A DNA stretch of 64,000 nt from Dehalococcoidia bacterium. Lineage in GTDB: Bacteria > Chloroflexota > Dehalococcoidia > UBA2979. Where the stretch lies: contig OZ244720.1 of assembly GCA_965219085.1 (NCBI GenBank), positions 2,560,001-2,624,000 of the forward strand, given 5' to 3'. Positions within the stretch are counted from its first letter, which is position 1. Each line of letters begins with the position of its first letter. The notes under the pieces are model-generated. The model did not search any database. It was not told the origin of the DNA and saw only the letters and a program-made list of their open reading frames with translations. Position numbers and translations under genes: made by a program. Shown in pieces: positions 668 through 41,930 of the stretch.

Positions 668-689
668 TGGCTGGACCGAGGAACTGCCG

Positions 690-2466: not shown

Positions 2467-2467
2467 G

Positions 2468-10233: not shown

Positions 10234-10329
10234 GCTACACCCTGCGCGCAGACTGGCGATCCAGCATCGGGGGGCCACTCTAGCACGGTGGTGGCGATGA
10301 ACCGCACGGACGCCGCAGCCCGCGCCACG

Positions 10330-10825
10330 CCAGCGGAGCCGCCAGCCGCTGTGGAACATGGGACACGCCGGCGCCGTGCACGCTTCATCGCGGCGCTCAC
10401 CACGCAGTCGCGCGCGCGGATGGGATCTCATCCAGCTCGACCCGCCCCACCGGGCGTGGCGTTACTTCCGCCGCGACAGACGCCTGCGCTCCGTGCTGCC
10501 CGACGCCTTCGCCGCCTTGCGCAGCGGGACGACGCTGTGGCCGTGCTTCGTCGAGCGAGCGCCGCGGGGTGCGGCCCTCAACGATGGCGGCGAAGCTCGC
10601 ACCCTACCAGCGCCATTACGCCACGCCCCGGCCTACCGACAAGCACGGCGCGCGGCCCGCCGTGCTTGTCGTCTTCGGCGACGAACTCGCCTCGCACCAC
10701 ATCCTGCGCGGGGGCGGGAGGAGATGGAGCGCACCGGCGTTGACATGCCGCTCCGGGTCTCCCACGCGAGCCTCGTTGACGCGGGAGTGGCCGCTGGGAG
10801 CCCGGCTCGCCCGACCTCCCTATGA
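10330..10825 (+). pseudogene. Frameshifted remnant of a replication-relaxation-like gene
   Basis: Pieces in several frames: LPDAFAALR..PCFVER, KLAPYQRHY..DKHGARPAVLVVFGDE, EMERTGVDMPLRVSH. Confidence 0.5.
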
Positions 10826-18087: not shown

Positions 18088-18205
18088 CACACACTCCGGC
18101 CGGTTGGGCGACCAACTGACGTTGCGGGCTCAGGGATTCGAGCACCGCCATGGTGGCAAGCCGGAGGCGGTGCTCGGAGTGCACAGTCCTGCGTCATACC
18201 TGACC

Positions 18206-18649
18206 CTACTCGGGGAGCACGTCATCCAAGATCGTGACATCCAAGCCCCGAACACGGCGAAAATCGGCGTCGTTAGTAAGGAATAGCGCACACTCGACCT
18301 GCAGGGCAGTCACCGCGTGCAGGGCGTCGGGCGTCTTCAGCCCCGTCTCGGCGCGAAGGCGGGCAGTGGCCTCCCAGAGTTGGCGTGTGACGGGCACGAC
18401 TTGCACCTCTGGGGCAGCAAACACGCTGCGAAAGGCCGTTTCGAGACCGAGATTGCCCTCCCGAATGGGGCGGACAAGCGTTTCAGCTATCGCCAACTCG
18501 CTGCACACCACGACAATCTGCCCCGCCTCGGCTTGCTGCCACGCGGGAGCCAACAACGTGAGGTATGGCTCGTTTCGTTCCACGCTGTAGATGATGGCCG
18601 AGGTATCCAAGTAGATGGACCCGCGTGGCGGAAGGGTCAGCGTTCCCAC
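18206..18649 (-). CDS. vapC: PIN-domain toxin (VapC-like)
   Basis: IYLDTSAIIY..ELAIAETL..LKTPDALHAVTA..FLTNDADF. Confidence 0.9.
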   Translation of the reverse strand: MGTLTLPPRGSIYLDTSAIIYSVERNEPYLTLLAPAWQQAEAGQIVVVCSELAIAETLVRPIREGNLGLETAFRSVFAAPEVQVVPVTRQLWEATARLRAETGLKTPDALHAVTALQVECALFLTNDADFRRVRGLDVTILDDVLPE

Positions 18650-18870
18650 GAGGCCCGCTCCTCTGTGAGGTAGTCGTCGACCTCCTTCGCGCTCTTGAAG
18701 AGGCGTTGCCCCGGGCCCTCCGAGATGATCTGCCAGGCGGAACGAGACGAGGGTTCCTGCGCGGGCGAAATCACCACGTCCACGTGTTCCCCGGCCTGAA
18801 GGTCTCGGTCCACGATCTCGATCTTCCCTCCGGGCTGTACGGTTGCCTTCTTGTGCAGCACCCTCTGCAT
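18637..18870 (-). CDS. Putative antitoxin
   Basis: 77 aa overlapping the PIN gene; ATVQPGGKIEI..GEHVDVVI N-terminus and VDDYLTEERASWE C-terminus. Confidence 0.75.
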   Translation of the reverse strand: MQRVLHKKATVQPGGKIEIVDRDLQAGEHVDVVISPAQEPSSRSAWQIISEGPGQRLFKSAKEVDDYLTEERASWER

Positions 18871-18908
18871 TCCTCATCCTTCCTAGCTTGGCGGCTTTCC
18901 CAGTGCGG

Positions 18909-21848
18909 TCAGCCAGCTTCGCGCAGTTCCTCCATCAACTCGAACATCCGCCTGATGTGGCTCGTACCGCCGCCTTGCGGGAACAGCACGTGGCTCTTCT
19001 CGAGTTCCGCTCTGGAGAGGCCGGGAACCCAACGCACCTGATCGAACGGCGTCTCAGAGATGACAAAGGCGTCCAGGACAACGCGTTCATCCTGCGCTGA
19101 GAGCCTCTTCTGATGTTCCTTGATGGACTCGGCGAGGCCGATCTTCGGGTCAGTCAGGCCCTCGAGGTAGTTGAGGCCCTTTGGGTCGACGAACGCGATA
19201 TGCTGGTGGTCGCGCTGCATGACCCACAGGATGAAGTCCGGGTAGTACCCGCCCGCCTCGAAGAAGCCGACCCCCTTCCCACGGCTCTGGTTGCGGAGGA
19301 GATAGATGTCCCGCCCGCCAAGTTGACTTGCATGCTTCTTGATGAACTCCGCGAGGCTTTCCACGAAGTCTCGCTCCCCGGTGTTGAGAGCAACGGGTGT
19401 GGCCTTCACTCCGTCATCGCTGAGGTGTATCAGCGGCGCATACAGGTGCCGATCGAAAGCCAGTGCCTGTAGAGAGTCCGTCTTCAAGTCGCGCGCGCGC
19501 CCCTGCGCGATGTCGTCCTGCAGTTCTTTCAGCGTCGCACGGGTCGGGCCGTGGTCTGCTGGCACGCGGAAGGTGTAGTGCTCGAAGAAGTTGCCGTCGT
19601 CCGGGCGCAGTTCCTCGTAGTGCAGATGGTCCATCTCGTATTCCGCCTGCCGGAGGCGGTAGAAGCGCTCGACGTACTTCTTTAGCAGCGTGACCGCGAT
19701 CTCCTGCCACACGCGTACGCGCTCGAACCCGGCGAACTCCAGGTCACTGGCCGGGATGAGCAAGTGGTACCAGTCGTCGTGCTCGAGCAGCGCACGCGGC
19801 ACATCACGCGGGATGGCAAGATTGTGGAAGGACCGCTCCGCCTTGAATCGCTGCAGCGCGAACCAGATCTCATCGAAGTCGAAGAAAGCGGTGTGGCCGG
19901 CAGTCAACTTGTTCGGTGTCTTGCTGACGCCGGCGCTCAGAGGGAGCCCGGTACTGCGGCGCGCTTGGATACGCGGGTACCAGTCGAGGGAAACCGGGCG
20001 TCTCTTGATTTGCTCAAGCGGCTCTGCCTCCAATACCGGTTTCGGTCCGGTTGTCCGGAAGTCGACGCCGCGCTCCAAGCGGATGGTGAGCAGGCGGACG
20101 CCTTCAAACCTGCCACCCGTGGCGAGGTGGTTGATGACGTCGAGGGTTATCTCCTTTGTGTCGGTATCGCTCGGCAACCCCTCTTCTGCGAGGAACTCCC
20201 GGAATTGCTGCATGTAGTCGGCGCGGATGCCCACGACGTTCAGCGTCTCGAGGTGCTTCACGTATTCCGGGTGAGCCTCACCATCGTCCCGGCGAATGAA
20301 TCCTGAACGCTTGAGCGAGAAGTCGAGGCCGCGCAGGCGAACGCCCCGACCGAAGAGTTGGATGATCTCTGAGCCCTCGGATTTCCCTACGTTCATCAGG
20401 CCGATCGTGCTGACTCGCCATGATGACCACCCCTCGGTGAACTTCTTAGCGCCGATGAGGACGTTGATGGCCGACTCCCGGCTGTTGATGCTGCGGAAGA
20501 GCGAGTCCTTGAAATCACCGACCTCCGAGACGCCGATCCCGTGGCGTTCCGTCTGGCGCACGACCCTTGAAGCATCACCGACGTTGACGACGCCGAACGC
20601 ATCATGGGTTCCGACGGTAAGGGCGATCTCTCCCTCTGCGTCTGCGCCGCGCAGCCGCTCCAGATGGAGCGTACCGCCCGCTGGCGCGTTGAAGATAAGT
20701 TCGAGTGCTTGGTCATATATCTCGTCGGACATGCGCCCTTCGAACAGTGGGGTCAGGCGGCTGGCAAAGATGTTCCGCCCGTTGCCGTCGACAAGCGCGT
20801 TGTTGCCTGTCCGGACTTGGTCAATGCGCTGGATTGCCGCGTCACGGTTTCCCACGAAGTCGTCGAGAAACTCCAGTATCTGCAGGATGTCGCTCAACTC
20901 CTGCTTCCCCGTCGAGGCTGTGACACGCGAGCCAACGAAGACCCAGAGCGGCCTCTCGATCAAGTAGGAGGCGAGCTCATCCCCATGCTCACGGTAGAGG
21001 TGGAGCTGCTGCAGGAAGACGAGCAAGCCCCCCGTCATGTAGAGGCGGCGCTGCTCCTCGTCGTGGTCTTCCAGGAGATTGAGGATGTGGAACTCCTTGC
21101 CGAAACCGTCGGCGTGGAAGTAGCGGTAGGAGTAGTCGAAGAGTATGGCGTGCCCATACTCCTGCAGGAGAGCCTTGCTGCCGGTTGGCTTGATCGCTTG
21201 ACCGAAGGTCGCCGAGTACTCGAACGAGAAGCCGCCCTCGCTGAGGCGGCGGCGGCGATCCATCCATGCGCCCGCTTCGCTTGCCGATGCACCTCGGTGA
21301 CCCTCGTCCACCAGCACGAGGTTGTTGCCCTCAAAGGCCTCGACCGCGACCGTCTTCTCCTTCGACTCGTCTGCGAGCTTGTGGATGTCGATCACCTCGA
21401 CCGTGCGGCCGGTGAACAGGGAAGGGGGTTCCTTCGAGAAGGCTTGAGCGTCAATTCCCGAGCTAGCGAACTCGTACAGATGCTGGTGCGAAAGGCCTTC
21501 GTTGGGAGTGAGCAGGATGATGCGATTCAGCTGGTGCTGCCGGCCAGCCGTTTCGAGATAGTGCAGATACTGCTTGATGTTGCGCGGGGCGTCAGACGGA
21601 TCGATGCCGGCTATGCGGGCCGACTCGGAGGCCTTGCGGATATCGGCTTGGAGCGCTGCAAGCTCATCATCCTGCATTCTGTCGAGCGCCTGGCGCACCC
21701 TCGGGAGCAGCTCCTCCCCCAGGAACCGGCGAATCTCGTCGCGCCGCACGTTCATGATCCGGTAGAGGCCAAAGTCGAGGTCGGCCCGGTCGAACATGAA
21801 CAGTTCGTCCAGTGTCTCCCGCAACCGCTCAATGCTGGCTTCTGGCAT
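18909..21848 (-). pseudogene. Type III restriction-modification locus collapsed into an in-frame Mod(N-terminus)-Res fusion
   Basis: LDELFMFDRADLDFGLYRIMN is a type III Mod N-terminus. It is joined near 21582 to Res (NIKQYLHY, LVLVDEGH, FEYSATF, KFTEGW, QLFGRGVR, YPDFILW..FVDPKG). Walker A and MTase motifs are absent. Confidence 0.8.
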
Positions 21849-22010
21849 CCCGTCCCGCTCCAAGACCGGCAAGACCGCCTGCTGATGTCCCCGATCGGTC
21901 CGATGCCACTCCCGCGCGCACCATCGATGCAGACATGGGTCGCGGGGCGCCTTCTCGTTGCTCCCGATCTTCGCAGATTGTAGGGCAGGGCGGCGGGGAA
22001 GTCCGAGTAT

Positions 22011-22759
22011 TCATCCCATATCGACCCGTGTCGAGGAGCGTCTTGCGGAGGGCGACCGCTGAGGTTGGCCCGGGGGAGGCGTCCGGCTCCGGTCTTGGAA
22101 CGCACGAAGGGCAGCACATCTGAGAACCGGCGAGGGCCGCGGTTTCACGCGACGGCCCCCACGGTCCCCGGCTGTCAGCCCGCTCGCACTGGCGAGCGCA
22201 CCATGCTGCTCCCGCTCCAGTGCCCACTCGAAGAGGGAGAGCATCGGAGCCTCGTCCCGATGTTGGCGCTTCGGCGGCTCCCCTGGCTCCTTCGCCATGA
22301 ACTCCGCCCACGAGAACAGCGACCGCTGCGGCTCGGGGTTGTCGTCGAGCCGGTCGCCCGCGCCCGTCGCGGCCACGACGACTTCCGCCTCCAACGGCTC
22401 CGGCGGACGCCACTCCACGTCCACCAGCAGCGCCTCGGCCTCCGCCGCGACCTGCTGCGCCTGGGCGAAGACCGAGTCGGCGTCCTCCTCGCCGGCGACG
22501 ATCTTCCTCGCGAGAGCGAGCATGAGGTCCTCACCGTCGTCCCCGTAGGCGTCGAGGCCGTCCCCCGGCAACTCGCCCTCGAGGGCGAGGGAGCTTTGCA
22601 GCTTCTTCGCCACGAGCTTGAGGGCGTCGGCCTGCAGGGTGTTCCGGTAGGCCATGAAGACGACCTGCACGGGCTGGGTCTGGCCGATGCACCAGGATCT
22701 GCGCGAGGCCTGGCGCATCGTGTAGACGGAGTAGTCGTCTCCGTACAGACGACGGTCGG
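22011..22759 (-). pseudogene. Orphan 3' fragment of the ICE SF2 helicase, copy 2
   Basis: DYSVYTMRQASRRSW.IGQTQPVQVVFMAYRNTLQ.. is near-identical to 29619..30188; homology begins at 22759 (degenerate PTVVWYETDY). Confidence 0.85.
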
Positions 22760-23032
22760 TCTCCTGCCCGATGGGGCGATCAGACATCGATGGCTACTCC
22801 CGACTAAGCGGCGATGCAGCGCGCGGGCCGACGCTGCGAATGCACTCGGAAGAGCCACCGTCACAGGGGGCGCTGCACAGTGAAGCTGCGGCGCGGCAGG
22901 ACGGGCAACACGGAGTTCAACCACAGGACTTCGGTTTCGCGCGGGCGGCGGCGACAGCCTGAGTAATTGCGAGGCGCTCTGCGTGACCTGCCATCGGATG
23001 GCCTCACTCGGCCTCGCTCGGCGGTTTTAACG

Positions 23033-23998
23033 CTAGACCGGTTGCAATGCCTCCTTTCCCGCTGCGGCCCCGAGCGTGACGAGATACTTCGTCGGCACCG
23101 CCTCGAGCCGATTGTCGGCGAGGTGAGCGGCAAGATCGTCGAAGATCAGTGGGAACCCGCGTTCACGCAGCAGACTGAACTCGGACATTGGGTCACGGCT
23201 GAGGTCGATGTCACCCCAGAAGTGGACGCCGTAACTCTTGGGCACCCTGTGGGCCACGGTGTGTTCGCGGGCGGACAAGAAGAAGCGCACTTCACTCTGT
23301 CGGCTTGCTTTGACTTCGATGCGCTGCACGTCATCTGTGGAGCGATCCTCGATGTCGTATCCGAGAGTCTCATCGTCACGTGCAACCCACAGGACTGAAC
23401 TCGGATTCTGAGATTCGAGCCTTAGGAGATGCACGCTATAGGCCTCTCCTCGCGAGCCAACGGTCTTGTTGACTGCATCTCCGGGTCGGGGAACCGGGAT
23501 TAGACTCCACGGCACGTCGATCGCGGCAAAGAGCTCCGAAGGAACCATGACGAACGACGGCCCCACCACCCCAGGCCATGCACGCAGAATCCCGAGGAGC
23601 TGCGGAGCCGCCCGCCTAAGCACTCGCAGCTCAGATGTCGCCGACCCATCCTCACCAATGGTCGATGCCTCGATGAGTTGGCGTACCTGGTCGTGAAGGA
23701 AACCAGCATGGATTATCAACTCACCAAGTTCCCTTGCACGTCGCGCTCGCGACATTGTGGCGATGCGGCTACCCCGGCGGGAGAGCTGAAAGCGATCGGC
23801 AGCCACGTGCAGAAGTCCTACGTCGGCAAGGACACCAACAAGTTCCGGAATCTCGTCACGAGGGCCGTCGATGTTCTCCCTAAGCTCCCTCACGAGCTGG
23901 CTTCTCATGATGCCCGGCGCTCGTGTAGGCATCTGGTGAATGACCCGTTCAAGTCGTCGGACCCGAGCGCCGATGAACCAGTCGGACGCTACACTCAC
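23033..23998 (-). CDS. DUF3883 (NOV C-terminal-type) nuclease domain protein
   Basis: GSRGEAY..WVARDDETLGYDI..RIEVKAS..FFLSARE; GTGA overlap with the helicase. Confidence 0.8.
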   Translation of the reverse strand: MSVASDWFIGARVRRLERVIHQMPTRAPGIMRSQLVRELRENIDGPRDEIPELVGVLADVGLLHVAADRFQLSRRGSRIATMSRARRARELGELIIHAGFLHDQVRQLIEASTIGEDGSATSELRVLRRAAPQLLGILRAWPGVVGPSFVMVPSELFAAIDVPWSLIPVPRPGDAVNKTVGSRGEAYSVHLLRLESQNPSSVLWVARDDETLGYDIEDRSTDDVQRIEVKASRQSEVRFFLSAREHTVAHRVPKSYGVHFWGDIDLSRDPMSEFSLLRERGFPLIFDDLAAHLADNRLEAVPTKYLVTLGAAAGKEALQPV

Positions 23999-25944
23999 GG
24001 TTCGTCGTCGACCTCTTCGCCCACGAGATACCGAATTAACTGCTCTAAGTCACCTCGACTTCCTTCCGAGTCACCAGCGTCCTGCTGAAGGGGGTGTACC
24101 TCGGCCCCGCCCAACAACTCTTCCATTACCGCCTGCTTGTCGAGGAGAGCCGCGTCAACCAGATGGTCGATCGTTTCCGCGTTATCAAGAGTGGCTTGCA
24201 AGATGTGGATGGTGACATCCGCGTCAGCCGGGAGCCCAAGCCGGTGAATCCGATCAATTGACTGGAGGTACAAGGCCGCGTCATACGTCCTATCCAGGTA
24301 GATGGCGTGGTGACATGCCCGGTGCAACGAGATGGACTCGGAGCTTGTGGCGGGGTTTGTGACCAGTGCGGCCGGACCGCTGACGCTGAGAAACCGTTCT
24401 ATCCGGCGCTCCCGCGAGTCGTCCTCAGGCACCTCACCGCCTGCGCGGTCCTGTGCGGGATCGTCAGAGGCAGGGACGCGTCCATCGACTTGGAACACGG
24501 GAATTCCCAGGTCGCCACGAATGAGATCGCTGAACGCGTCGAGGTTGCGTACAAAATTGCTCCAGCAAACGACCTTCATCCCGGCACCTGCGAGGTCTTG
24601 AACAAGGTCGAGCGCGGCGATGGACTTGGCCGGTCGCTCCCTTTCGCCGAAACGAGCAAGACGCTCCATGAGTGTGGGGTTTCTGCCCGGGATGCGAGGC
24701 AGCCGATATCCGTCATCGGGTTGGTTTAGCAAGTCGGGATTCGCCGCCGCCTGAAGCAGCCGAATGGGGCGAGCACGGCGTAACACCTCCAGTTTGTCCT
24801 CCCATGTGCCTGCATCCTGCAGTTGGTCGCGGAGACCATGCCGGATGAGCACATATATCTCGGCCTGTGTGCCATCCATCGGTACGCTGTGTCGCTCTAC
24901 GTGGTAAGGGGGAAGTCCGAGCTCGGATTTGGCCGTGCGGGTCGTAAACGGCTCGATCGACGGTAGGACGCTGGCGAAGCGGCGGTCCACCCGGCTTGCG
25001 AATTCAGTTCGGCTTCCGGTCAACATTCCCCTGGGCCACATCACATTGAGCTGGCTGTAGAGGTCACGAGGGCCATTCGGCATTGGGGTGCCCGAGAGAA
25101 TCATGCGGACGCGAGAGAGCTCGGCGATCTCGGCTAGAGCTGGTGCCCATACCCCCCCCTGGAAGCGTTTGATCCGGTGGGACTCATCGACGATCAGCAT
25201 GATGTTCAGGCGCTCGCACATCTCGAGGATGGACAAGCGGTCTGCGGCAGCTCCAGCAAAGCTGAGGAGAAGCAAGTCACCCCGAACCGCCTCCGCATAC
25301 ATGCCTTGGCGGACGCGAGCTGATCCCCTGATCCGGATGGGTCGAAATAGCGTCCCCACCGCTGCCGCCGTCTCGGACTCCCATGGCTCGAACGCCGCGA
25401 GAGGGCCGACAACCACGACTGTGTCTATCGTCCCGGCGTCATAGTGCACGAGTGCAGCCGCCAGCGCCGTGACGGTCTTCCCTGAGCCCGGAACCGAGAA
25501 GTTGGCTTGATTGATCGCTGCCAACGCGTGGCCGACATTACGTAGCTGATGTTGGTGAAGGCGACGCTCCGGCCTCCATCCAAGAGCGTCAAGTTGGTCT
25601 GCAACCCGCTCGTCGTCGATGGACGAGTGCCCGTGCTTCCACGAGGCGGCCTCCGCTCCGGCCCGCTCCAAGCTGCGACGCTGTTCTAGGGCAAGCTCAA
25701 GGCTCCTGGCGGCCTCTCCGGCATTGGAGGTCTCGAATCCTTGGGAGTCAAGGAAGTTGTTTATCCGGACAACCAGGTCCTGGACTCGACTTCCGCGGGG
25801 TGGGATGAGCCAGCCATCGTCGAGCCCTTCGCCTCCCATGATCGCTTGGAAGAACCTGCGCGCCTGCCGCCCATGGAGATCAGTCGACCCTGTAACGGTT
25901 ATGTGGTCGTCCTCGACTTGAACGAGGGCGCGCAGCTGCCTCAT
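23995..25944 (-). CDS. SNF2-like SF2 helicase/ATPase
   Basis: NFSVPGSGKT, LIVDESHRIK, LSGTPMPN, SESISLH, QSIDRIHRLG; ATGA overlap with upstream gene. Confidence 0.9.
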   Translation of the reverse strand: MRQLRALVQVEDDHITVTGSTDLHGRQARRFFQAIMGGEGLDDGWLIPPRGSRVQDLVVRINNFLDSQGFETSNAGEAARSLELALEQRRSLERAGAEAASWKHGHSSIDDERVADQLDALGWRPERRLHQHQLRNVGHALAAINQANFSVPGSGKTVTALAAALVHYDAGTIDTVVVVGPLAAFEPWESETAAAVGTLFRPIRIRGSARVRQGMYAEAVRGDLLLLSFAGAAADRLSILEMCERLNIMLIVDESHRIKRFQGGVWAPALAEIAELSRVRMILSGTPMPNGPRDLYSQLNVMWPRGMLTGSRTEFASRVDRRFASVLPSIEPFTTRTAKSELGLPPYHVERHSVPMDGTQAEIYVLIRHGLRDQLQDAGTWEDKLEVLRRARPIRLLQAAANPDLLNQPDDGYRLPRIPGRNPTLMERLARFGERERPAKSIAALDLVQDLAGAGMKVVCWSNFVRNLDAFSDLIRGDLGIPVFQVDGRVPASDDPAQDRAGGEVPEDDSRERRIERFLSVSGPAALVTNPATSSESISLHRACHHAIYLDRTYDAALYLQSIDRIHRLGLPADADVTIHILQATLDNAETIDHLVDAALLDKQAVMEELLGGAEVHPLQQDAGDSEGSRGDLEQLIRYLVGEEVDDEP

Positions 25945-27266
25945 CTCAACGCCGGTCCGTGCCGTTCGAACCACGCGGACATGACGCGGACTGCATCGCG
26001 GAGGTCTGACGTCTCAGCATTCTCCAAGGCTGGTCCGAGCCTATCGGCGTCCTCACTGATGAGGGCCTGTAGACGGTTGTTGACTTCCTTCACGATCCTG
26101 AGAGCGTCTGCCGTCTGTGCGGCCGCATGCCGATCAAGCGCGTCCTCGAATACGTCTCTTACGGCCTCCTTTGGGTAGTTTGTCACCACTGGCCCTGGAG
26201 GGTCATCCCGCTCCTCGGGCATGTCGGGATCGTCAACGTCGTCGTCAGCCAAGTCCGGGACGCCCAGTGCCTCTTCGTCAATAGGCGGGGTCCACTGCTC
26301 CTCAGCCTCACCTACATGCTCTGCGAGACGAGCGAACTCGTCCCGATCAGCCTTGAACAGTCGCCGAACCTTCCGGATCTCGAGATGAGTCAAACCCGCA
26401 CTGACTGCGGCGAAGAGCACGTCCAGCATCGCCGCGGCCCAATCCTCGTCTCCCCCCTCTAGCATCCGCATAGTCCGCCCGACATCGCGGAAACGCTCGA
26501 TCTGTCCGATCAATCGGTCATAGCGCCCATCTAACCCCAGATCACGCAGATACTCGTCCATGTACCTGATCGCATAGAGCTGCACGATGGCATAGCCAGG
26601 ATCGTTACCCATCACGTGCTGTAGATTGCCGGCAACATCGGCGATGCTCACTGGGTCATGCCAGTCAATTTCCTGATCGACTGCCGCATCCCTGACCGCC
26701 AGGAGTAGGTTGATGTCCGTATACCGGACCTTGTAGTCCTCCGTGAGCTGCTCACGCTGCTCCATCTCGAATATCGCTAGCTCACTGATCTCGAGATCGT
26801 CGAGAATGACGGCCTCGACATGCTGATAGCTCCCCACCGCTGGATCTCGGTTCAGGCGGCGCAACATGGCTAGGCGTCGGTTGCCGTTTCTGACCATGCC
26901 GTCAGCATGAATCCAGAACGGAGACTCTTGCTGTCTATTCAGCCAGTCTTTGCGGAGTGCCTCATAGTCCTTGTCCGGTTTCCCTACTACCTGGTCCCCG
27001 TCAACGTGACGGTTCTGGTCCAGCAGGATTGATTCCACGCTCAGCGCATCGGCTTCGTTGTTCTCTGGATCAAGTGAGCGGCCGAGTTGTTGCTGGAAAA
27101 GTTCCCGCTCGGCAGCGAAACGCCGGTTTTCGACATTTAGGATGAGAGCCGCGACGGGCACTAGCTTGACCGGTGCGGTCCTCCACCGCCCCAGCACCCA
27201 GAGCTTCGCCTCCCATCCGGCCGACGGTGCCGAGGCAATCAACTCCTCACGTTGTTCAGTATCCAT
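25941..27266 (-). CDS. ParB/Srx-like N-terminal domain protein
   Basis: LNVENRRF..QESP..DGMVRNGNRRLAML (GxRR arginine patch), followed by a helical acidic C-terminus. Confidence 0.65.
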   Translation of the reverse strand: MDTEQREELIASAPSAGWEAKLWVLGRWRTAPVKLVPVAALILNVENRRFAAERELFQQQLGRSLDPENNEADALSVESILLDQNRHVDGDQVVGKPDKDYEALRKDWLNRQQESPFWIHADGMVRNGNRRLAMLRRLNRDPAVGSYQHVEAVILDDLEISELAIFEMEQREQLTEDYKVRYTDINLLLAVRDAAVDQEIDWHDPVSIADVAGNLQHVMGNDPGYAIVQLYAIRYMDEYLRDLGLDGRYDRLIGQIERFRDVGRTMRMLEGGDEDWAAAMLDVLFAAVSAGLTHLEIRKVRRLFKADRDEFARLAEHVGEAEEQWTPPIDEEALGVPDLADDDVDDPDMPEERDDPPGPVVTNYPKEAVRDVFEDALDRHAAAQTADALRIVKEVNNRLQALISEDADRLGPALENAETSDLRDAVRVMSAWFERHGPALR

Positions 27267-29331
27267 CAGTCCCCCCGTTGCTGGTGCTCTTGCGGGTTGC
27301 GCGCTTCGGCGTGCCAAAGCGGGAAGCCGCCATTTCGTGCGCTAGCTTGAAGCTGGTCAGATCAGCATCACCAATCTCGAGACCATCGAGGTTCTCTGAC
27401 CACAACGCCTTGTGCTCGCCGATGTTGGTAGGGTAGGTCTCCCTCGCTGGACGGCAAACAACCACAACGTCCCACGCGCAGCTCCCTGGACGGCTGTGGT
27501 GGCCCATGTGTCCGTCGCTACGAACCGGCCACATCGCCGTGACCCGCAGGTCTAACCGGTCCAACGCCACGCCTATGGCTTCCCAAGCGGGCGGCTTTGC
27601 TGAGTGATAGGTGAATGCCACAGGGCGTCCGCCCTTCCGAACCGCCAGCGCCGGCCGTAGGCAGTCAGCGAGGCGTAGGCCGAATGTGGCGGCGTCGTCC
27701 GCAGCTGCAGACTGGAGCGTCTCGCCGCTCAGCACATGCGAGGGATCCCAAGCTCGGAACAGCTCGGTCAGCTCGTCGTACTGAATGTAATCGTAGTAGG
27801 GCGGATCGAAGACCAGCAGGTCGATCGGGGCCTCTAGGACGGCATCGGCGGCGGAGGAACAGCGCACGTCCACTGAAGGCGCCCTTTGCGGGAGATTGAG
27901 CGTCACCTTCTCTGTTGTACGTCTCGTAACATCCCAGGTTGCCCGCCGCGTCGTAGTCGTCGTCGATCGGAGGACGCGGTTCAAGCATTGCCGAAGCGTT
28001 CCCCGCCCACCGCTGGAGTGGAGGGGGTTCAGTTCGACCGCCAAGGCCGGGAGAGAATATCCGCGGACACTGTATAATGGCGAGAGTCGCCCATAGTCCG
28101 TCGCGTACGAGCACAAGCGATTGTTCGTCATCAGGGCACTCGACAAGACGAGGCGGACTGCTCGTTCCGCGGCCTTGGACATGTCTTCTGCATCAACCCA
28201 AGCATGCGCCGCGCCGAGCACCAAGAGTTGGCGAGCCGTGAAGAGATCGCGTACGCCGATAATGCCAAAGCTGCGGGGGCGAGGGTCGCGGCGCACTGGT
28301 TCGAATTCGGCGTCTGGCAGCCTAAGAGCCACTGGCGGGTTCCCCAGCAACTCATCAGCTAGGTCGAGGGCAGCTAGGTCTCGATCGCCAGGGCCGAAGA
28401 GCTTCCTCCTTCGCCCAGGTGCCGTGCGTTCAATGGCCACCAACTTCCGGGGTGCCGCTCCACTCTGGAGCTCACGGTGGCCGGAGCGCTTCTGGCATGA
28501 CGGGCATCGATACTTGAGAGCATCGAACGTCGAGTGGTCGACAGCCCACTCGTGACTCGCCCCTTTGAACTGCCTCTGTGTGGCGGCGGTAAGGTAGCTG
28601 ACCTCGAGTGTCTCAGGATCGAAGACCGTGGCCCCGTCGTCACGGAGCACTGCTCCGGCCTTACCACAATCTCGCGCCAGCACGAGTGAACGGTAGAGCG
28701 GGCCAGCCGTGCCGCAATGCGGGCATGTGACGGTCGCGATCCAGAATGAGTGTAGTTGTTCACCTTCGTCATCCGGATAGAGGGAGGAGAAGTGCTTGCG
28801 TAAGAAACTCAGCAGCGCATCGCCGATGTCCTGTATCTCTGACTCTTGCGCTGGGTCAAGACTGTGGCCCACTATCAAATGAGCCGTGGGATCGACATCG
28901 CTACCGCTAACCTCAGCCCCGAGCCTCGAAGCCTCAATCAGTGTGGTGCCCCCTCCCATGAAGGGGTCGTGAACGCTCAGACCTTCCAGGTGCGGCCCAT
29001 CGTCAGCGTACCGGTGCCAGAAATCCCGTTCCGTCGCCTCTCCGTCCATAGTTGCGGCCAGCAGGATCGCTCGCATGAGCGATGGGGGACGCCGGGCCCA
29101 CCACCGATGTGCCGCGTACGAAGGGTCCTTCGCCCGACTGTCCGCTGCGACTACCCGCGACACTGCGAGCGCAGGGAATCCGATCTCCAACAGGGAAGCG
29201 GCCACCTCGTCCCCGGGCTCATGGTGGCTCGATGTGTGGCCATTTCGGGACCAGTCGGCCGATAGCTGGCCGGGCTCAGAGAGGATTTCGATGCGTGAAC
29301 GGCTCGCCGCCGTCGGTAGGTGCTCCGGCAC
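27256..29331 (-). CDS. Amino (N6A/N4C) DNA methyltransferase with Zn ribbon (DUF1156-like family)
   Basis: HRWWARRP, VHDPFMGGGTT (SAM motif), CPHC/CPSC, DPPYYD catalytic motif, AFTYH. Confidence 0.85.
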   Translation of the reverse strand: MPEHLPTAASRSRIEILSEPGQLSADWSRNGHTSSHHEPGDEVAASLLEIGFPALAVSRVVAADSRAKDPSYAAHRWWARRPPSLMRAILLAATMDGEATERDFWHRYADDGPHLEGLSVHDPFMGGGTTLIEASRLGAEVSGSDVDPTAHLIVGHSLDPAQESEIQDIGDALLSFLRKHFSSLYPDDEGEQLHSFWIATVTCPHCGTAGPLYRSLVLARDCGKAGAVLRDDGATVFDPETLEVSYLTAATQRQFKGASHEWAVDHSTFDALKYRCPSCQKRSGHRELQSGAAPRKLVAIERTAPGRRRKLFGPGDRDLAALDLADELLGNPPVALRLPDAEFEPVRRDPRPRSFGIIGVRDLFTARQLLVLGAAHAWVDAEDMSKAAERAVRLVLSSALMTNNRLCSYATDYGRLSPLYSVRGYSLPALAVELNPLHSSGGRGTLRQCLNRVLRSTTTTTRRATWDVTRRTTEKVTLNLPQRAPSVDVRCSSAADAVLEAPIDLLVFDPPYYDYIQYDELTELFRAWDPSHVLSGETLQSAAADDAATFGLRLADCLRPALAVRKGGRPVAFTYHSAKPPAWEAIGVALDRLDLRVTAMWPVRSDGHMGHHSRPGSCAWDVVVVCRPARETYPTNIGEHKALWSENLDGLEIGDADLTSFKLAHEMAASRFGTPKRATRKSTSNGGTDGY

Positions 29332-29618: not shown

Positions 29619-30188
29619 CTAACGCTCTGCGCCGACCAACTCCCCTTCCCCCTCCCGTTCGAGCGCCCACTCGAAGAGGGAGATGGACGCTGGCGCGGGC
29701 CTGCGGCTCCGGCCCTTGGGCTCGGCCGGCTCCTCGGCCATGAACTCCGCCCACGAGAACAGCGTCCGCTGAGGTTCCTGAGCCTGGTCGTCCGTGACGG
29801 TGTCGAAGGCCATCGCCGCCTCTGTGACCACCGGCTCGGGCTCGGGCGCGGCCCACTCGGCGTCGACCAGCAGCGCCTCGGCCTCGGCCGCGACCTGCTG
29901 CGCCTGGGCAAAGACCGACTCCACCGAGTCGGCGTCCTCGTCGCCCGCGACGATCTTCCTCGCCAGGGCCAGCATCAGGTCGTCGCCCTCGTCCCCGTAG
30001 GCGGCGAGGCCGTCCTCGGGGAGTTCGCCCTCGACGGCGAGGGAGCTTTGCAGCTTCTTCGCCACGAGCTTGAGGGCGTCGGCCTGGAGGGTGTTCCGGT
30101 AGGCCATGAAGACGACCTGCACGGGCTGCGTCTGGCCGATGCGCCAGGACCTTCGGGAGGCCTGCCGCATCGTGTAGACGGAGTAGTC
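29619..30188 (-). pseudogene. 3' part of the ICE SF2 helicase, separated from its 5' part by the inserted element
   Basis: DYSVYTMRQASRRSWRIGQ (motif VI region) continues in frame from ..IVWFET at 56828. Confidence 0.9.
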
Positions 30189-31768
30189 GGCTCCGGTTTG
30201 GCAATCGACACGAACTCCTCGTCGGCCGGGATGGCGAGTGTGAGCGTGACGTTGTTCTCGCCGTCGATCGTCGCCTCCTCCAGCAGCAGGTCCAGCACCT
30301 CGCGGCGCTCCGCGTCGGGCAGGCCGTCGAGGCCGCCGCCGGCCCGGCGCGCCCACTCCACCACCTGCTCCACCGCGACGCGCCGGCCGGCCTGGGCCGA
30401 CGTCCTCGCCCGGTGCTCGTCGAGGCGCGCGCGCAGCCGCTCCAGCCGCTCGCCGATGAAGCGCCGCTGGTGGTCGAGCTGCTCCTCGCTGATCTTCCCG
30501 GACACGTAGAGCCGGATCGCACGGTCCTCCTCCGCCTGCACGCCCGCCAGCTCGCGCTCGGTGCGCGCGACCTCCTCGGCACCGGTGTCCTCGTCCGGGT
30601 CCAGCGCCGCCAGCCCGGCCGCGATCAGGTCCGGGTCCTGCAGGACGCGCCTGACCTCGCCCCAGACCAACTCCTCGAGCCGCTCGGCGCGGATGAACGG
30701 GTGCTCGCGGCAGCGCAGCCGGTAGGGCGCCCCCATCCCGTAGCAGCGGTAGTAGCGGCGAGGCGTCTTGAGCCTGTACGAGTAGGTCTTGCCGCGCCGC
30801 CGCGTGCTCTGGCTGCGGACCACCCGGGGACCCATCAGCATCCCGCACTCGCCGCAGTGCACGAGGTGTTGGAGCAGGTGGAAGGTCTTCGTGTTGCGCG
30901 GCGAGCGCGTCAGCCGCCGCTCGCGCAGCACGCGCGCCCGCTCCCACGTCTCCTCGTCCACGAGCGGCGGGAAGGGCACGCCGATCCAGGCGTCGCGGGG
31001 CTGCGCGTGCCTGAGCGTGCCTGAGTCGGTGGCGGTGTGGCGGGCCTTGCCGTACCACCAGGTGCCCCGGTAGGCCTCGTTGCGGAGGATGCGGTTGATC
31101 TGCGTCGCGTGCCAGCGCGCTCCCGGTATCGCCGTGGGAACGCCGTCGTCCGTGAGCGCCGCGGCGATGGCGGGCGCGCCCATGCCGTCTTCGACGTAGT
31201 GGCGGAAGATGCGCCGCACGACGGCGGCGCGCTCCTCGTCGACCTCGGGCGTGCGGCCCTCGCCGATGCGGTAGCCGTCGGGGACGTTGCTGACGGGGAT
31301 GCGGCCCTGCTTCGCGGTGCCGCGCTTGCCCATGGAGGCGCGCTCGCGGAAGTTGTCGAGCTCGATCTTGCCGATCGCGGCCATGAGCCCGAAGGTCTTC
31401 ATGTCGATCGCGTCCATGACCGCCTCGAGGCCGATGCCGTGCGCCTCGACGACCTCCATGAGGGCGGCGGCGGGGTACATGCCGCGGCTGAGGCGGTCGG
31501 ACTTCCAGCAGACGATCGTGTCGAAGCGGCCGGAGGCGGCGTCGGCGAGCATGCGCTGGAACTCGGGGCGGCTCTTGGACCAGCCGCGCCCGACCTCCTG
31601 GTAGCGGGCGGTAATGGTCAGGCCGCGCTCCGCGCAGTAGGCCTCCATGTCGCTGGTCTGCTCGCCGAGGGAGGTCTTGTCGTCCTCGGCCTGGCTCTTG
31701 TCGGAGACGCGCGCGTAGATGGCGGCGCGGCGGTTCCCGGGCTGGCGCTGTGGCTTCGTTCGTGGCAT
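29975..31768 (-). CDS. Large serine recombinase (integrase of element 30187-56827)
   Basis: AAIYARVS, DRLSR, LLQHLVHCGECG, YYRC, coiled coil; reads through the att junction at 30187 into an alternative frame of the helicase. Confidence 0.92.
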   Translation of the reverse strand: MPRTKPQRQPGNRRAAIYARVSDKSQAEDDKTSLGEQTSDMEAYCAERGLTITARYQEVGRGWSKSRPEFQRMLADAASGRFDTIVCWKSDRLSRGMYPAAALMEVVEAHGIGLEAVMDAIDMKTFGLMAAIGKIELDNFRERASMGKRGTAKQGRIPVSNVPDGYRIGEGRTPEVDEERAAVVRRIFRHYVEDGMGAPAIAAALTDDGVPTAIPGARWHATQINRILRNEAYRGTWWYGKARHTATDSGTLRHAQPRDAWIGVPFPPLVDEETWERARVLRERRLTRSPRNTKTFHLLQHLVHCGECGMLMGPRVVRSQSTRRRGKTYSYRLKTPRRYYRCYGMGAPYRLRCREHPFIRAERLEELVWGEVRRVLQDPDLIAAGLAALDPDEDTGAEEVARTERELAGVQAEEDRAIRLYVSGKISEEQLDHQRRFIGERLERLRARLDEHRARTSAQAGRRVAVEQVVEWARRAGGGLDGLPDAERREVLDLLLEEATIDGENNVTLTLAIPADEEFVSIAKPEPTTPSTRCGRPPEGPGASARRSPCRSSSWPTGTPSRPTPSSSWRRSCKAPSPSRANSPRTASPPTGTRATT

Positions 31769-31983
31769 GGCTGGCTCCTCTCAGAAACAGAACGACCCGC
31801 CACCTGCCGGGGCGGGTCCGCGAGCGGTAGCATGCTGCTCGCGTCACCTGTACCAGCAGGCGGCGCCACGGCCCGGGGCGTTCTCAGCGCCGCCGGGCCA
31901 CCTTGTCCCCCTCAGCGTAGCCGGGGCACCGCGAGGCGGTCAAAGCGGCGTCGCCACGGCGGGCTCCCCGCGCTGCGCCTTCC

Positions 31984-33242: not shown

Positions 33243-36200
33243 GTGGTGGCCACGGTCGACGGCACAGGCGACGCGAACAGGGACGCTCGCGTGGGGAGCG
33301 AGCCCGAAGGCGCGGACGGGACTACCGGCGATCCAATCGCGAGCCGGATCGGCGAGTGGCAGACGCGACTGCTCCAGCTCAACCGTCGGAACAACCTGCT
33401 CTATTTCAAGCCCGGGCGTAGCGCGGTCGGGATCACAGGCCTTGGTCCCGACGAACTCTATGATCGGCTCCGCCGGTCGCGGCGCGGCCTCGAGTTCCCA
33501 TACGCGCCACCGCCGAGACGACGCGGCCGGTTCGCTCAGGAAGACGAGCCCGAAGAGGAGCCCGCCGCCCCTGTCAGTTCCCGAGCTGACCTGGCGACGG
33601 ACTGCGAAGTGGTCGACTTGCAGCGGAGACTCCGCAATCTCCGCCGCCGCGACCGCGAATGGGAAGAGGAGCAGGGCCTTAACGTACTCTTCCTCGCCGT
33701 CGGATTCCTCGATTGGATTGACGCCGACGGCGAGCCGGCGCGCTCGCCGCTGGTGTTGATTCCGTGCGACCTCGAACGTGCATCGCCACGCGACCCGTTC
33801 CGCCTGCGAGCCGAGGACGACGATCCGGTAGTGAACCCCACCCTGAGCCACCAGCTTTCGATCCTGGGCGTTGACCTGCCCGCACTCGGCGGCGACTCCT
33901 CCGAGGACGAATCGCTCGACGCGTATATCGCCGCGGTCGGCGACCTCATAGGAAGTCGAGCGGACTGGGCGGTCGATGGCGGCATCGCGCTCGGCGCATT
34001 CTCGTACTCGAAGCTCGCGATGTACCAGGACCTGGAGCGGATGTTGCGTCACGGCGTCCGGAGTGACCTCACGCAACTGCTCGCCTCCGGTGGCGCCGCC
34101 CGAATCGAGCGGGCAACGGCGAGTGGCACGGCACCTGCGGCGGTGCGTGGAGAAGACCTCGCCGGCGGCCGACTGGACGACCTGCTGGATATCCGCGATC
34201 AGTACGCAGTGCTCCCGACCGACTTCAGCCAGCTGGGCGCGCTCGATCAGGCGCGCGAGGGCGGACACCTGGTCATCCACGGTCCGCCGGGCACGGGCAA
34301 GAGCCAGACGATCGCGAACCTGATCGCGACGCTCCTCGCCGACGGAAAGCGCGTCCTCTTCGTAAGCGAGAAGACGGCCGCCCTCGATGTCGTGAAGCAG
34401 CGGCTGGAGGAGTGCGAGCTCGGGGTGTTCTGCTTCGACCTGCACAGTGACCGGGGTAGGAAGAGCGAGGTCTACGCGCAGTTGCGGGAATCCGTCAACA
34501 ACCCCCGCGCGCGCATCGCCGCCGGTGTGTCCGCAGACGAACTGAAGGAGCAACGGGACCGCCTCAACCGTGTCGTGCGCAGGCTCCACGAGCGCCGGCA
34601 ACCGCTGGGGCTGTCGGTGTACGAGGTGCAGGGCCGCTTCGCAGGACTCCGTCACCTTCCCCGGTTCGAGGCGCTCAAGGCACCATCGGTCGCGGATCTG
34701 GAGCAGGAGTGGATTCGTCAGGCCGAGGCCGATGCTGGCCGGATCGCGCGGCGGCCCGCAGAGTTTCTAAGCCATGACGCCAGCCTGTGGATGCCGCTCC
34801 GAACGCCACAGCGCTCGCTACAGCTCGCGGACCTGATCCGGCACGACATGGCGGACGTACTACAAGCCGTTGAGGAGTTCCGAGCGGCCGCCCAGCCGCA
34901 CGCGGAGTGGCTCGGCGTGCGGGCGATCGGGTCCGCGGAGGATGCGCGAGCCGTGGCGCGACTGTTCGAGCTGCTCGCAGAGGCCCCGGCCGTCCCCGGT
35001 GCATGGCTCGAGCCGGGCACTGTGCCGCGTCTGCGCCGGTTGTCGCGAGAGCAGGCCGAGCAGCAGCGCGAACGCCGCCGCCTTGAAGGGGTGCTGTCGG
35101 ACGCGCTCGGTACTGAACCACCATCTATCGACTACCGCGCCGTACTGAGCCGCATACCTCTCTCGCCTGGAGATCAGGAGGCCCTCGAGGCGACGGCGGG
35201 GCGCGGCTGGCGCAGCGCCCTCGCTACCGATCCGTCGGCGCTGTTGGATGAGGCGAGCGACCTTGCCGCGGCACTCGACCGGCTGGCGGCCGGCGCCGCG
35301 GCGATCGCCGAGCCGCTCGGGAACCCGGAACTGCGCACCCTGAGCCGGATTGATCATGCAGCCGGCCTGGCGCAGCGCGTCCTCGGCTTTGATCCCGTCC
35401 CGCAACACTGGCTCACGGCCGCCGCTATCGATGAGCTGGAGGAGGAAGTCGCACAGGCGCGGTCGCTGCTCGACCAGCTCAGTAGTGAGGAGGATGCGCT
35501 CAGGGCGGACTTCTCCGACGGCCTGGTCGAGCTCGTGGATGAGGAGATGCTTGTCCGCTACCGCACGGATCACCAGAGCTTCTGGCGACGTCTCTTCCGT
35601 GGGGAGTACCGGAGTGACCAGCGCGTGCTGAGAGGCCAACTCGCGGCCCCGCGCAAGCTCTCGCCCGTCGAGTCGCTCACCGCGGTCGAGCGCGCCCTCA
35701 ACGTGCAGCGGCTGCGCGCCCGCTGGAGCGAGATCGAGTCGGAGTTGAGCGAGACTCTGGGGGCGCGCTTCCGTGGACGCGAGACGCAGTGGGAGCGAGT
35801 TGGCGAGGATTCCCGGTTGCTGCGCGGGGTGCTCACCGACTGGCGCGGAGAACCCTCCATCCTCCGCGAATTGACTGCCGCCGGAACGGACGGCGAACGG
35901 CGCCACGAGCTCGAATTGGCAACCGAGCCGCTCAACGATGCCCTCGCTCGGTACCGCAGGGCCGTGGAGGCGATCGGCCATGAGCCACTCGGCGATGCGC
36001 AACTGGACGTGGCAGCCACGGGGGAGGCGGTTCGACGGGCGTTGGAGCCGCTGCACCGCATCCGGGACGCAACGGCGGAACTCTTCCGCAGTCTCGTGAA
36101 GCCGCTCGCCGACTACTACGCGCTGATGGGACTTGTCGAGAGCGGCGTGAGGCTCATGGCGATACGTGACGAGGACGAACGCCTGGCACCGGCACTTGCG

Positions 36201-38945: not shown

Positions 38946-39313
38946 GACGCGGGCGGAGCGACCGTCGCGCGAATGCGAACGTCGAGAACGGCCCTTCCGG
39001 CAGTTGCTCGCGGACGGAACGCGCGGCAGCGTCAAGGGTTGTCGGTTTCGACACGGTCCTCTGCGAAGAACGTCGCGGCCTCACTCCGCTACAGGAGGCC
39101 CGTGAACCGGCTGAACCGGTTTTGCACCATGTGGCGCGAAACGGGCTGTTTGGGGCAGACAGACGCTGTAGAGAGAAGAACGTAGGTCAGACTGCCCCAC
39201 GGACACCACGAAAGTACTGCGAACACTGGGCTCTTCATGGGGCAGCGTGCACGACAGGCTGTCGCGGGAGAGCCCCCTACAGGAAGTGCTACGCCCGGCC
39301 TTGTGACACTTTG

Positions 39314-41323: not shown

Positions 41324-41404
41324 GTGTTGATCCGTGGCGGGCGCGTCGGTCGCGGCGCGCAGTCCTCGTCCAGCTTGCGATCAGGACGTACGTTCGTCAA
41401 CGCA

Positions 41405-41531
41405 CCACGACGGCGAGTTCGTGCCGCTGATCCCGGGCGCGCCCAAGTTCGTGAACCGGCCCTTCCACGAGCTGTTCCCGCACGGCGTTCCGCCCCTCAC
41501 GCCGCTGGTCGCCGCAAGCGACGGGCGGTAG
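41405..41531 (+). pseudogene. Remnant of a surface-protein C-terminal domain
   Basis: HDGEFVPLIPGAPKFVNRPFHELFPHGVPPLTPLVAASDG matches the last repeat of the giant protein (HDGEFVSYILGAPAFVNREFRELFADGLPAVTPLVAKSEG). Confidence 0.7.
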
Positions 41532-41930
41532 GCCCCCTCGGAGCGCGACACCGCTGCCACTGCGCGCGGCCGAGTTCGCTCCGCCTTCCGCGCAGAACGC
41601 TCTTGCCCGGCAAGCGGCGTGACGGCTGCACTCCGCAGCGCGCCACCGCGTCGCTGGTTCTCAGGCAGTCGCTCATTGCCTGAGAAGAGGCCACACGGCC
41701 CTCAATCCATGACATTCACGCTATGTTCACAGAGTAGCATCGCAAGTTCACGTCCCGTGCACTGACACCAAGCCAACGAGCAGGAAGAATTGCCCCGTTG
41801 AACCTGGGAGAGCGCAACACGCGCGCGAGGGGGCACTGGTGCGTCGGACGGTCGCGAAGTCGAACGGGAACGCGCGGCAGGCAAGCGCAACGGCGCTGCC
41901 TGCGCGCATCGCGCTACTAGAACAAACGTA

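Follow-up and report, generated by a model that had tools for sequence, protein, structure and literature searches.

The 64,000 nucleotides analysed here (the window) are positions 2,560,001 to 2,624,000 of the forward strand of contig OZ244720.1, from the assembly GCA_965219085.1 of a Dehalococcoidia bacterium (Chloroflexota). On the minus strand, between positions 23033 and 29331 of this window, lies a compact set of four genes (6.3 kb), labelled g1 to g4 in their 5' to 3' order, whose predicted products make up the parts list of an ATP-dependent restriction-modification (RM) system: a methylase, a motor that translocates on double-stranded DNA (dsDNA) and a PD-(D/E)xK nuclease that itself carries DNA-binding domains; g2 adds a protein with a predicted ParB-like fold. 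On balance, we favour the view that the four form a self-contained, horizontally mobile, RM-like defence cassette, in which the methylase would set the mark, the SNF2-family motor and the nuclease would restrict, and g2 would act as a loader or switch. The genes are as follows (aa, amino acids; ORF, open reading frame):

27256..29331, minus strand: g1, predicted amino-methyltransferase, 691 aa; long ORF, start at 29331 or ~29205
25941..27266, minus strand: g2, predicted ParB/Srx-fold protein, 441 aa from the likely ATG at 27266 (ORF 25941-27317)
23995..25944, minus strand: g3, SNF2-family ATPase by sequence, 649 aa from the likely ATG at 25944 (ORF 23995-25974)
23033..23998, minus strand: g4, predicted double winged-helix and NOV_C/DUF3883 nuclease, 321 aa

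An earlier, sequence-only reading of this DNA had described four intact, overlapping genes, and we find them so at these coordinates: the stop of g1 and the ATG of g2 overlap by 11 bp, g2 and g3 by ATGA, and g3 and g4 by GTGA. The start of g1 is uncertain, since its similarity to most relatives begins only at residues 37-46, and a GTG at ~29205 is the alternative. The same reading had held the genes to be more A/T-rich than their flanks, which is true of the immediate flanks (GC content of 0.587-0.625 across 23-29 kb, against 0.689 at 22-23 kb and 0.674-0.726 at 29-31 kb, in a GC-rich window that ranges from 0.58 to 0.75) but does not set the cassette apart: the 13-22 kb stretch is also GC-poor (0.608-0.653), so that the cassette belongs to a wider low-GC island and is not a unique dip. 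Between 22.8 and 30 kb, a sigma-70 promoter scan returned 0 promoters and a terminator scan 3 terminator-like sites, against 3.3 expected.

The product of g1 is probably an amino DNA methyltransferase of the N6-adenine type, with both activity and target base predicted. In textbook terms, motif I (D.F.G.G) binds S-adenosylmethionine, motif IV (FDPPY) is catalytic and the two Cys pairs (C..C and CP.C) are those of a zinc ribbon; all of them are kept in at least 90% of the 29 g1 sequences, and the first two are the combination found in amino (N6A/N4C) DNA methyltransferases. By profile comparison, g1 would be a distant and short DUF1156-type protein, whose Cys4 zinc ribbon lies between motifs I and IV. 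In Pfam, both DUF1156 (22.5 bits, cut-off 24) and N6_N4_Mtase (19.6 bits, cut-off 26.7) score below threshold; in PADLOC, the top match is HmaB (3.1e-16, with a best stretch of 34 residues), alongside DUF1156_MTase (1.3e-15) and a weak match to PglX/PglXI (1.8e-8); the NCBIfam model DUF1156_antiphage gives 77 bits against a cut-off of 1000, and PHROG 10183 ('DNA methyltransferase') an E-value of 1.5e-50. The DUF1156 proteins of plasmids, some of which adjoin DUF499 genes, are 24-27% identical to g1, and a sequence search against the PDB gave nothing useful.

The hallmark gene of the cassette is g2, modelled as an N-terminal ParB-like domain with a helical C-terminal half. It matched no family in Pfam (E<=0.01), PADLOC, NCBIfam or PHROGs, and nothing in a sequence search of the PDB, also when used as a profile. 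When its AlphaFold2 model, built from a 26-sequence alignment (pLDDT 82.3, pTM 0.75), was compared with the PDB by Foldseek, the ten best matches were all of the ParB family (pNOB8 ParB-N, Noc, ParB-CDP, KorB; probability 0.80-1.0, TMt up to 0.52, E 0.015-0.07), with PadC and sulfiredoxin ranking lower. Among the viral structures of BFVD, the top matches are DdrB-like domain-containing, ParB/Sulfiredoxin and ParB-like nuclease proteins (best E 1.3e-3), and the closest cluster in the ESM Atlas bears the name 'ParB/Sulfiredoxin domain-containing protein' (0.98). Because the E-values are weak, we accept a ParB/Srx fold, probably of the DdrB-like kind, at the level of the modelled fold only; the sequence profiles ParB_N and ddrB-ParB do not claim the protein. 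At least 90% of g2 sequences retain the motifs NGNRRLAM, N.RF and MEQREQLTE, and the invariant NGNRR stands, in alignment and model, at the start of a helix after a strand, which is where ParB proteins carry their GxxR nucleotide-binding motif. This motif is the sole indication for the predicted nucleotide binding by g2. With a mean majority fraction of 0.59, g2 is among the better-conserved proteins of the cassette, and its family is large: it comprises 480 clusters at 90% identity, nearly all of ~441 aa and none of them named, and, at 50% identity, 591 clusters at E<=1e-3, 200 at <=1e-10 and 46 at <=1e-30. Neither the 72,556 plasmids nor the 50,697 phage records searched contain a match to the clade of the window protein.

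By its sequence, g3 is a SNF2-family ATPase, predicted to translocate on dsDNA (PF00176, 8.9e-13; PHROG 62, 1.3e-53); its family profile retrieves 62 SNF2 sequences from the PDB at E<=1e-3, the best of them SsoRad54 (1z63, 6.7e-18). Apart from the N-terminal ~130 aa, which have no assigned fold, it shows a SNF2 N-lobe and a helicase C-lobe with motifs I, II, III and VI, and its GxGKT, DESH, SGTPMP and QSIDRIHRLG strings are invariant or nearly so across 26 sequences. A faint match to DrmA (E 0.0025) falls on the C-terminal lobe. The last gene, g4, encodes the presumed effector, which we predict to consist of two winged-helix-like domains (residues ~10-152) and a NOV_C/DUF3883 nuclease of the PD-(D/E)xK type (~176-310). 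It scores above the Pfam cut-off for NOV_C (PF13020, 8.7e-9; 35.8 bits, cut-off 22.1) and carries the D...ExK signature, with E185, D215, E228 and K230 invariant among 26 sequences, and its AlphaFold2 model (pLDDT 90.8, pTM 0.87) shows two winged-helix-like units followed by a restriction-endonuclease fold. Foldseek relates this model to Hjc resolvase (probability 0.97, TMt 0.5), FokI (0.82) and, for the N-terminal half, to winged helix-turn-helix proteins, none of these matches lying below E 1e-3; the g4 profile found nothing useful in the PDB, and g4 had no match in the plasmid collection. The N-terminal half of g4 is the least conserved part of the cassette. The domain calls that the sequence-only reading had made for all four products are therefore upheld, the methylase by its motifs and sub-threshold families, the ParB-like protein by fold, the motor by PF00176 and the nuclease by NOV_C at 8.7e-9; the motifs that it had singled out (DPPY, GNRR, GKT and EVK) all occur, and at least 90% of 27-31 relatives retain them.

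Relatives of the cassette were collected by a g2-based scan with one genome per species, which returned 30 loci, mostly in metagenome-assembled genomes, from Dehalococcoidia, Acidimicrobiales, Acidobacteriota, Myxococcota, Gammaproteobacteria, Gemmatimonadota, Bifidobacteriaceae and Solirubrobacteraceae; about eight phyla are represented, among them Chloroflexota, Actinomycetota, Acidobacteriota, Myxococcota, Pseudomonadota and Gemmatimonadota. The four genes had been taken for one operon, and their order is indeed kept: a tblastn search with the four window proteins recovered g1-g2-g3-g4, all co-oriented and in unchanged order, from 28 of the 30 loci, g1 being absent from L013 and g4 from L028, while contig ends cut the cassette in L004, L014 and L018. 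At least 90% of 26-31 copies have retained the catalytic motifs of g1, g3 and g4. Wherever both are present (29/30 loci), g3 and g4 are separate genes, and no longer, fused forms of g4 turned up, which is itself weak evidence. The flanks of the cassette are unrelated between loci. Clustering of all ORFs of the 30 loci and the window left only four shared families, the next family occurring in 3 loci, and the cassette is therefore best seen as a self-contained unit that has moved between phyla. Its parts may also have moved separately: in L020 and L025, g1 is 60% identical to its window counterpart, yet g2 is 46-47%, g3 52-53% and g4 45-47% identical, values like those of distant loci, which hints at an exchange of methylases between cassette lineages.

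In the working that we propose, g1 would methylate adenines at specific sites of the host's own DNA, this methylation serving as the self mark, and g2, a putative nucleotide-binding protein of the ParB/Srx fold made together with g1, would work with it on DNA as a loader, clamp or switch dependent on nucleoside triphosphates (NTPs), which is the role of the DUF499/BrxC-type ATPase in the BREX-related systems Hma and MANTIS. On unmarked DNA, the g3 motor would translocate along the molecule, and the g4 winged-helix/PD-(D/E)xK nuclease, cooperating with it, would then cut. We propose for g2 the part of nucleotide-dependent loader or switch because DUF499 is missing and the ParB-fold protein is invariant, coupled and sometimes fused to the methylase; two metagenomic database proteins (P0141 and P0142, 1012 and 1101 aa) are such g1-g2 fusions. 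So arranged, the cassette would most likely protect bacteria against phages and plasmids. The conserved order, the tight overlaps, the intact active sites, the defence neighbours described below, the methylase that replaces g1 in L013, the link between g1 and g2, the precedent of Hma and MANTIS and the lack of matches to this g2 clade among the phages and plasmids searched together incline us to this reading, without making it certain. A more specific version, which we put forward as a tentative and rather doubtful idea, is that g2 forms a ParB-type nucleotide-gated clamp that would be loaded onto DNA at the sites recognised by the methylase, or would spread out from them, its NTP state choosing between self methylation and release of the SNF2-nuclease pair.

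Several observations count against the RM-like reading; they concern 1) the nature of g2, 2) the integrity of some copies, 3) the place of the methylase and 4) the affinities and surroundings of the cassette. As to the first, the ParB assignment of g2 consists of fold matches with weak E-values (0.015 in the PDB, 1.3e-3 in BFVD); Pfam ddrB-ParB is found, below threshold, in 6 of 26 members of the family (best E 0.048), and hhalign gives the g2 profile a probability of 0.5% against a true ParB (L010). A protein of this fold could, moreover, do something other than switching. For conflict systems, nuclease or NTPase activity of ParB/Srx proteins and a regulatory role of DndB have been reported (PMC5512222, PMC10853773), and KorB is among the fold matches of g2; on such precedents, g2 might be an effector, a ParB-type nickase or nucleotide-degrading enzyme acting in abortive infection, or else a KorB/DndB-like repressor of the operon. 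We regard this as highly improbable for a gene that sits in mid-operon with translational coupling on both sides and is among the better conserved of the cassette, in which a dedicated nuclease and a dedicated motor are already there. As to the second, tblastn matches fall into pieces in different frames in L001 (g2), L012 (g1, g4) and L030 (g2, g3), and the g4 of L025 (13272-15629) is interrupted by ~1.4 kb, all of which may reflect decay into pseudogenes or long-read errors. Both g1-g2 fusions, moreover, are singletons, and a frameshift within the 11-bp overlap could have produced them artefactually.

The third point is the variability of the methylase. In L013, the place of g1 is taken by a 288-aa PF01555 methylase (7308-8174, minus strand; 6e-42), unrelated to g1 and divergently encoded next to g2, which speaks against a strictly methylase-centred model, while the very existence of a substitute indicates that the cassette seems to need a methylase. 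A distant version of the cassette is found at the start (1-6607) of the record of Streptococcus phage Javan191, a predicted prophage (MK448700.1, L033), where the order is a BanI/DpnII-like protein, a g2-like protein of 428 aa, a SNF2 protein and a NOV_C protein of 311 aa, followed by a C5 methylase on the opposite strand; the g2-like protein aligns with g2 by hhalign at 97.6% (3e-12), the SNF2 protein is 29.6% identical to g3 over its full length, and the NOV_C protein matches at 3.5e-12. Here, the C5 methylase and the BanI/DpnII-like enzyme stand in for g1. Because the methylase is swapped in both L013 and Javan191, site recognition may not reside in g1. The phage-collection scaffold MT840009.1 shows the same partial order as Javan191, followed by a Vsr-like gene. 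The g2-like protein of Javan191 also has matches on 70 plasmids, 52 of them from Enterococcus and 63 typed as conjugative or mobilizable; in two Enterococcus plasmids (L035, NZ_CP098027.1; L036, NZ_CP078095.1), a g2-like protein of ~405 aa (ddrB-ParB, E 0.0022) lies between a SNF2 helicase and a protein of 815-864 aa with a Sigma70_r4-like helix-turn-helix and otherwise without known family, and no NOV_C gene is visible in these two records. Plasmid relatives of g1 do not represent this cassette, as the Tomitella and Rubrobacter records carry other gene sets. From these comparisons, the constant core looks like g2 and the SNF2 protein, usually with the NOV_C nuclease, and the methylase appears exchangeable.

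Since the methylases are exchangeable, a type II-like arrangement is conceivable, in which the real unit is the g2-g3-g4 trio, reading DNA via the winged helices of g4 and/or via g2, and the methylase provides exchangeable protection. Besides L013, where the trio goes with an unrelated PF01555 methylase, and Javan191, where its counterparts lie beside a C5 methylase and a BanI/DpnII-like protein, this would fit the FokI-like model of g4, with recognition domains followed by a nuclease, and the low conservation of its N-terminal half. Nevertheless, we consider it unlikely: g1 is present in 29 of the 30 loci and overlaps g2 by 11 bp, fusions of the two exist, and the methylases of L013 and Javan191 lie on the opposite strand and may belong to other systems.

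Coming back to the four-gene cassette, the sequence-only reading had placed it inside a defence island, a location that PADLOC and, for the PIN protein, Pfam support. It lies between the first three of the following genes on one side and the Hhe/PDC-S37 gene on the other:

13540-18090, minus strand: full-length homologue of Tiamat TmtA (PADLOC PDLC03968, 1507 bits)
18206-18877, minus strand: PIN-domain protein (Pfam, 3.6e-20)
18909-21872, minus strand: type III restriction enzyme-like protein, 987 aa (PADLOC, 7.9e-172)
33243-38945, plus strand: Hhe/PDC-S37 helicase-nuclease, 1900 aa (DUF4011, AAA_11/12, MTES_1575 REase, DUF3320)
38942-41683, plus strand: 913-aa protein, its gene overlapping the Hhe gene by 4 bp; no Pfam, PADLOC or NCBIfam family

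No Mod methylase accompanies the type III-like enzyme among the window ORFs scanned. A PIN-like ORF related to the PIN protein of the window lies upstream of the cassette of L001 (7247-7636). Elsewhere in the window, a 4513-aa ORF (43170-56711, plus strand), in which a subtilase S8 domain and a P-domain are combined with many cadherin, fn3 and Big_9 repeats, has the appearance of a giant surface protein gene, and its first 2 kb are low in GC (0.58-0.59), and an ORF at 8521-10431 (minus strand) combines DACNG and DACNH sensor domains with a DisA-type diadenylate cyclase domain.

Across the relatives, we scanned up to two ORFs per side in the 27 loci with flanks (three had no usable flank), 106 ORFs in all, taken from 159 candidates under a size limit. 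At E<=1e-12, PADLOC models matched 14 of these 106 ORFs, in 11 of the 27 loci: Menshen NsnA, QatD, Shedu SduA, a CBASS cyclase, a C5 methylase, a type II RM pair, Borvo BovA with an HNH effector, an IetA-like ATPase, an HKD-Snf2 protein, BilD and PDC-S24. Pfam added RES, Fic, GmrSD_N and dCTP-deaminase-like proteins and, in 7 of the 27 loci, mobility genes (3 tyrosine integrases, a serine recombinase, 2 transposases and a TrwC relaxase). Housekeeping genes (SufB, CTP synthase, amidohydrolases) are neighbours in several loci.

The window copy is flanked by traces of mobility of its own:

22186..22743: left imperfect direct repeat, inside the ORF 22011-22787 (minus strand)
29629..30195: right imperfect direct repeat, overlapping the 3' end of the serine recombinase ORF
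29975..31768, minus strand: large serine recombinase, 597 aa (Resolvase 1.9e-24, Recombinase 2.5e-18, Zn_ribbon_recom 2.4e-9)

The two repeats bracket a 7.45-kb unit that holds only the four cassette genes. They match in blocks of 273 nt (91%), 83 nt (87%), 59 nt (86%) and 55 nt (75%; families D1-D4) at a spacing of 7443-7452 bp, and their homology ends at ~30196. On the minus strand, each encodes a helicase-like C-terminal fragment of ~190 aa, the two copies being 75% identical over 191 aa, with a string that we take to resemble motif VI of superfamily 2 (SF2) helicases. Substitutions between the repeats fall on third codon positions of the frame at 29619-31847 (13/20 and 11/15) and do not follow the codon positions of the 597-aa recombinase; we therefore rejected a duplicated 3' end of the recombinase gene as the origin of the repeat, the pattern fitting the frame of the helicase-like fragment instead. 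The repeats may stem from tandem accretion at one target or from recombination between related islands. No tRNA genes were found in the window, and none is thus available there as an integration site. The serine recombinase lies directly upstream of the cassette, and in L001, the closest relative, a copy occupies the same position (5108-6736) with 92.6% identity, against 75-82% for the cassette proteins, and a 58-61-aa piece of the repeat-encoded fragment lies directly upstream of the cassette. Outside L001, the recombinase is not found at that position, and it is probably context and not part of the system.

These surroundings bear on the fourth point. In the narrow frame of the scan, 16 of the 27 loci have no PADLOC match among their nearest ORFs, and the profiles that g1 and g3 match most strongly belong to phage families (PHROG 10183, 1.5e-50, and PHROG 62, 1.3e-53) and not to defence families. 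In phages, plasmids and conjugative elements, the coupling of an adenine methylase to a SWI2/SNF2 ATPase and DdrB-like ParB domains are both described (PMC5512222), and the best viral fold matches of g2 are DdrB-like domain proteins. The four genes might accordingly be a tool by which mobile elements establish themselves, for anti-restriction or self-protection, derived from a split DarB-type methylase-SNF2 dyad with a DdrB-type ParB, and not a host defence; the recombinase, integrase, transposase or relaxase genes near the cassette in 7 of the 27 loci, as well as in L001, and the distant g2-SNF2 pairs on 70 plasmids, 63 of them conjugative or mobilizable, would agree with this. We hold it to be improbable, however, as the cassette has a nuclease among its fixed parts, with the active site intact, its g2 clade finds no match in the phage and plasmid collections, housekeeping genes flank the cassette in several loci, and no fifth gene, for transfer or for a virion, travels with it.

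The sequence-only reading recognised no named system of this composition, nor did any emerge here: no model of PADLOC 2.0.0 (including the PDC candidates), NCBIfam or PHROGs names the four-gene set, and the full-text literature searched (supplements excluded) holds no description of a system of methylase, ParB-like protein, SNF2 ATPase and DUF3883 nuclease. Its statement that the PglZ/BrxC and DrmABC partners are missing also holds for the 15 window proteins scanned with PADLOC. We rejected as identities 1) BREX, with neither PglZ nor BrxC among these 15 proteins and only the weak PglX/PglXI match on g1, 2) type I and type III RM, with no HsdS, HsdR, Mod or Res match on the four proteins, 3) ARMADA, which is YprA-based and set apart by its description only, and 4) Hma and MANTIS, as the DUF499 ATPase is absent. 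Class 1 DISARM is composed of DrmA, DrmB, DrmC, DrmD and DrmMI, where DrmD is a SNF2 helicase and DrmMI a DUF1156-type methylase; the cassette would share this pairing, with g1 as a distant DUF1156-type protein, but lacks the DrmA/YprA helicase, the DUF1998 protein and the PLD nuclease, the sole trace being the DrmA match on g3. With the CTP-dependent clamps ParB, Noc and KorB, it shares the predicted fold of the N-terminal half of g2 and the GxxR-type NGNRR, but there is no match at the sequence level and no ParA partner, and the C-terminal half of g2 is different. The polyvalent proteins of phages and plasmids, such as DarB and DdrB of phage P1, are alike in that adenine methylase, SWI2/SNF2 ATPase and ParB/Srx domains co-occur in them (PMC5512222), and in the PHROG and DdrB-like affinities of g1, g3 and g2; unlike them, the cassette consists of separate cellular genes with a dedicated restriction-type nuclease, and not of domains of virion or transfer proteins.

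The closest parallels are offered by the BREX-related systems. Hma, the type 1 of these (HmaA, HmaB, HmaC), combines a DUF499 ATPase, a DUF1156 methylase and a SNF2-DUF3883 helicase-nuclease, as described in PMC12839542 and PMC11232893, and resembles the cassette in its SNF2 helicase, DUF3883 PD-(D/E)xK nuclease, further NTPase (putative in the case of g2) and RM-like logic, and in its adenine methylase in so far as g1 is a distant member of the DUF1156 type. It differs in that the cassette has no DUF499 AAA+ ATPase and a ParB-fold protein in its place (we found no DUF499, HmaC or BrxC match on the four proteins or the scanned neighbours, and no fifth conserved family in 31 loci), that helicase and nuclease are separate genes where HmaA is fused, with g4 carrying winged-helix domains of its own and g3 giving no HmaA match at E<=0.01, and that g1 has ~690 aa against the 967-973 of the PADLOC HmaB profiles. 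MANTIS (Gao_RL, the type 2; MtsABCD) is likewise a methylation-based system of four genes, in which the methylase cooperates with an NTPase and one small protein, while restriction falls to a motor-nuclease of its own; its AAA+ ATPase has been shown experimentally to load the methylase, and restriction to require all four proteins (bioRxiv 10.64898/2026.09.23.753747). Here, the differences are the DUF499 AAA+ protein MtsA, the DUF3870 protein MtsB and the HKD/PLD nuclease MtsD, against the ParB fold of g2 and the PD-(D/E)xK nuclease of g4; the cassette gave no Pfam or PADLOC match to DUF499, DUF3870 or the HKD nuclease-helicase.

Methylation-based defence beyond classical RM (BREX, DISARM, Hma, MANTIS) is only now being understood, and in the one system whose mechanism is known in detail, loading of the methylase and licensing of the nuclease are both the work of an AAA+ ATPase. 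Most carriers of the cassette belong to uncultured lineages, which are poorly represented in current defence catalogues, and, being small (6.3 kb) and self-contained, it is therefore a practical target for heterologous testing and for defence-finding tools. In our reading, its kind, an ATP-dependent, methylation-based restriction similar to that of the BREX-related systems, is already known, and what is new is a ParB-fold protein in the DUF499 position. If the proposal is correct, the role of NTP switch would be open to unrelated folds, and ParB proteins would have a further job outside chromosome and plasmid segregation. On the more doubtful clamp version, an unrelated fold would have functionally replaced the BrxC/DUF499 AAA+ switch, and the cassette would stand for a broader, as yet unnamed group of 'ParB-like + SNF2' modules that exchange their methylases and nucleases, ranging from the chromosomes of Chloroflexota, Actinomycetota and Acidobacteriota to a Streptococcus prophage and Enterococcus plasmids.

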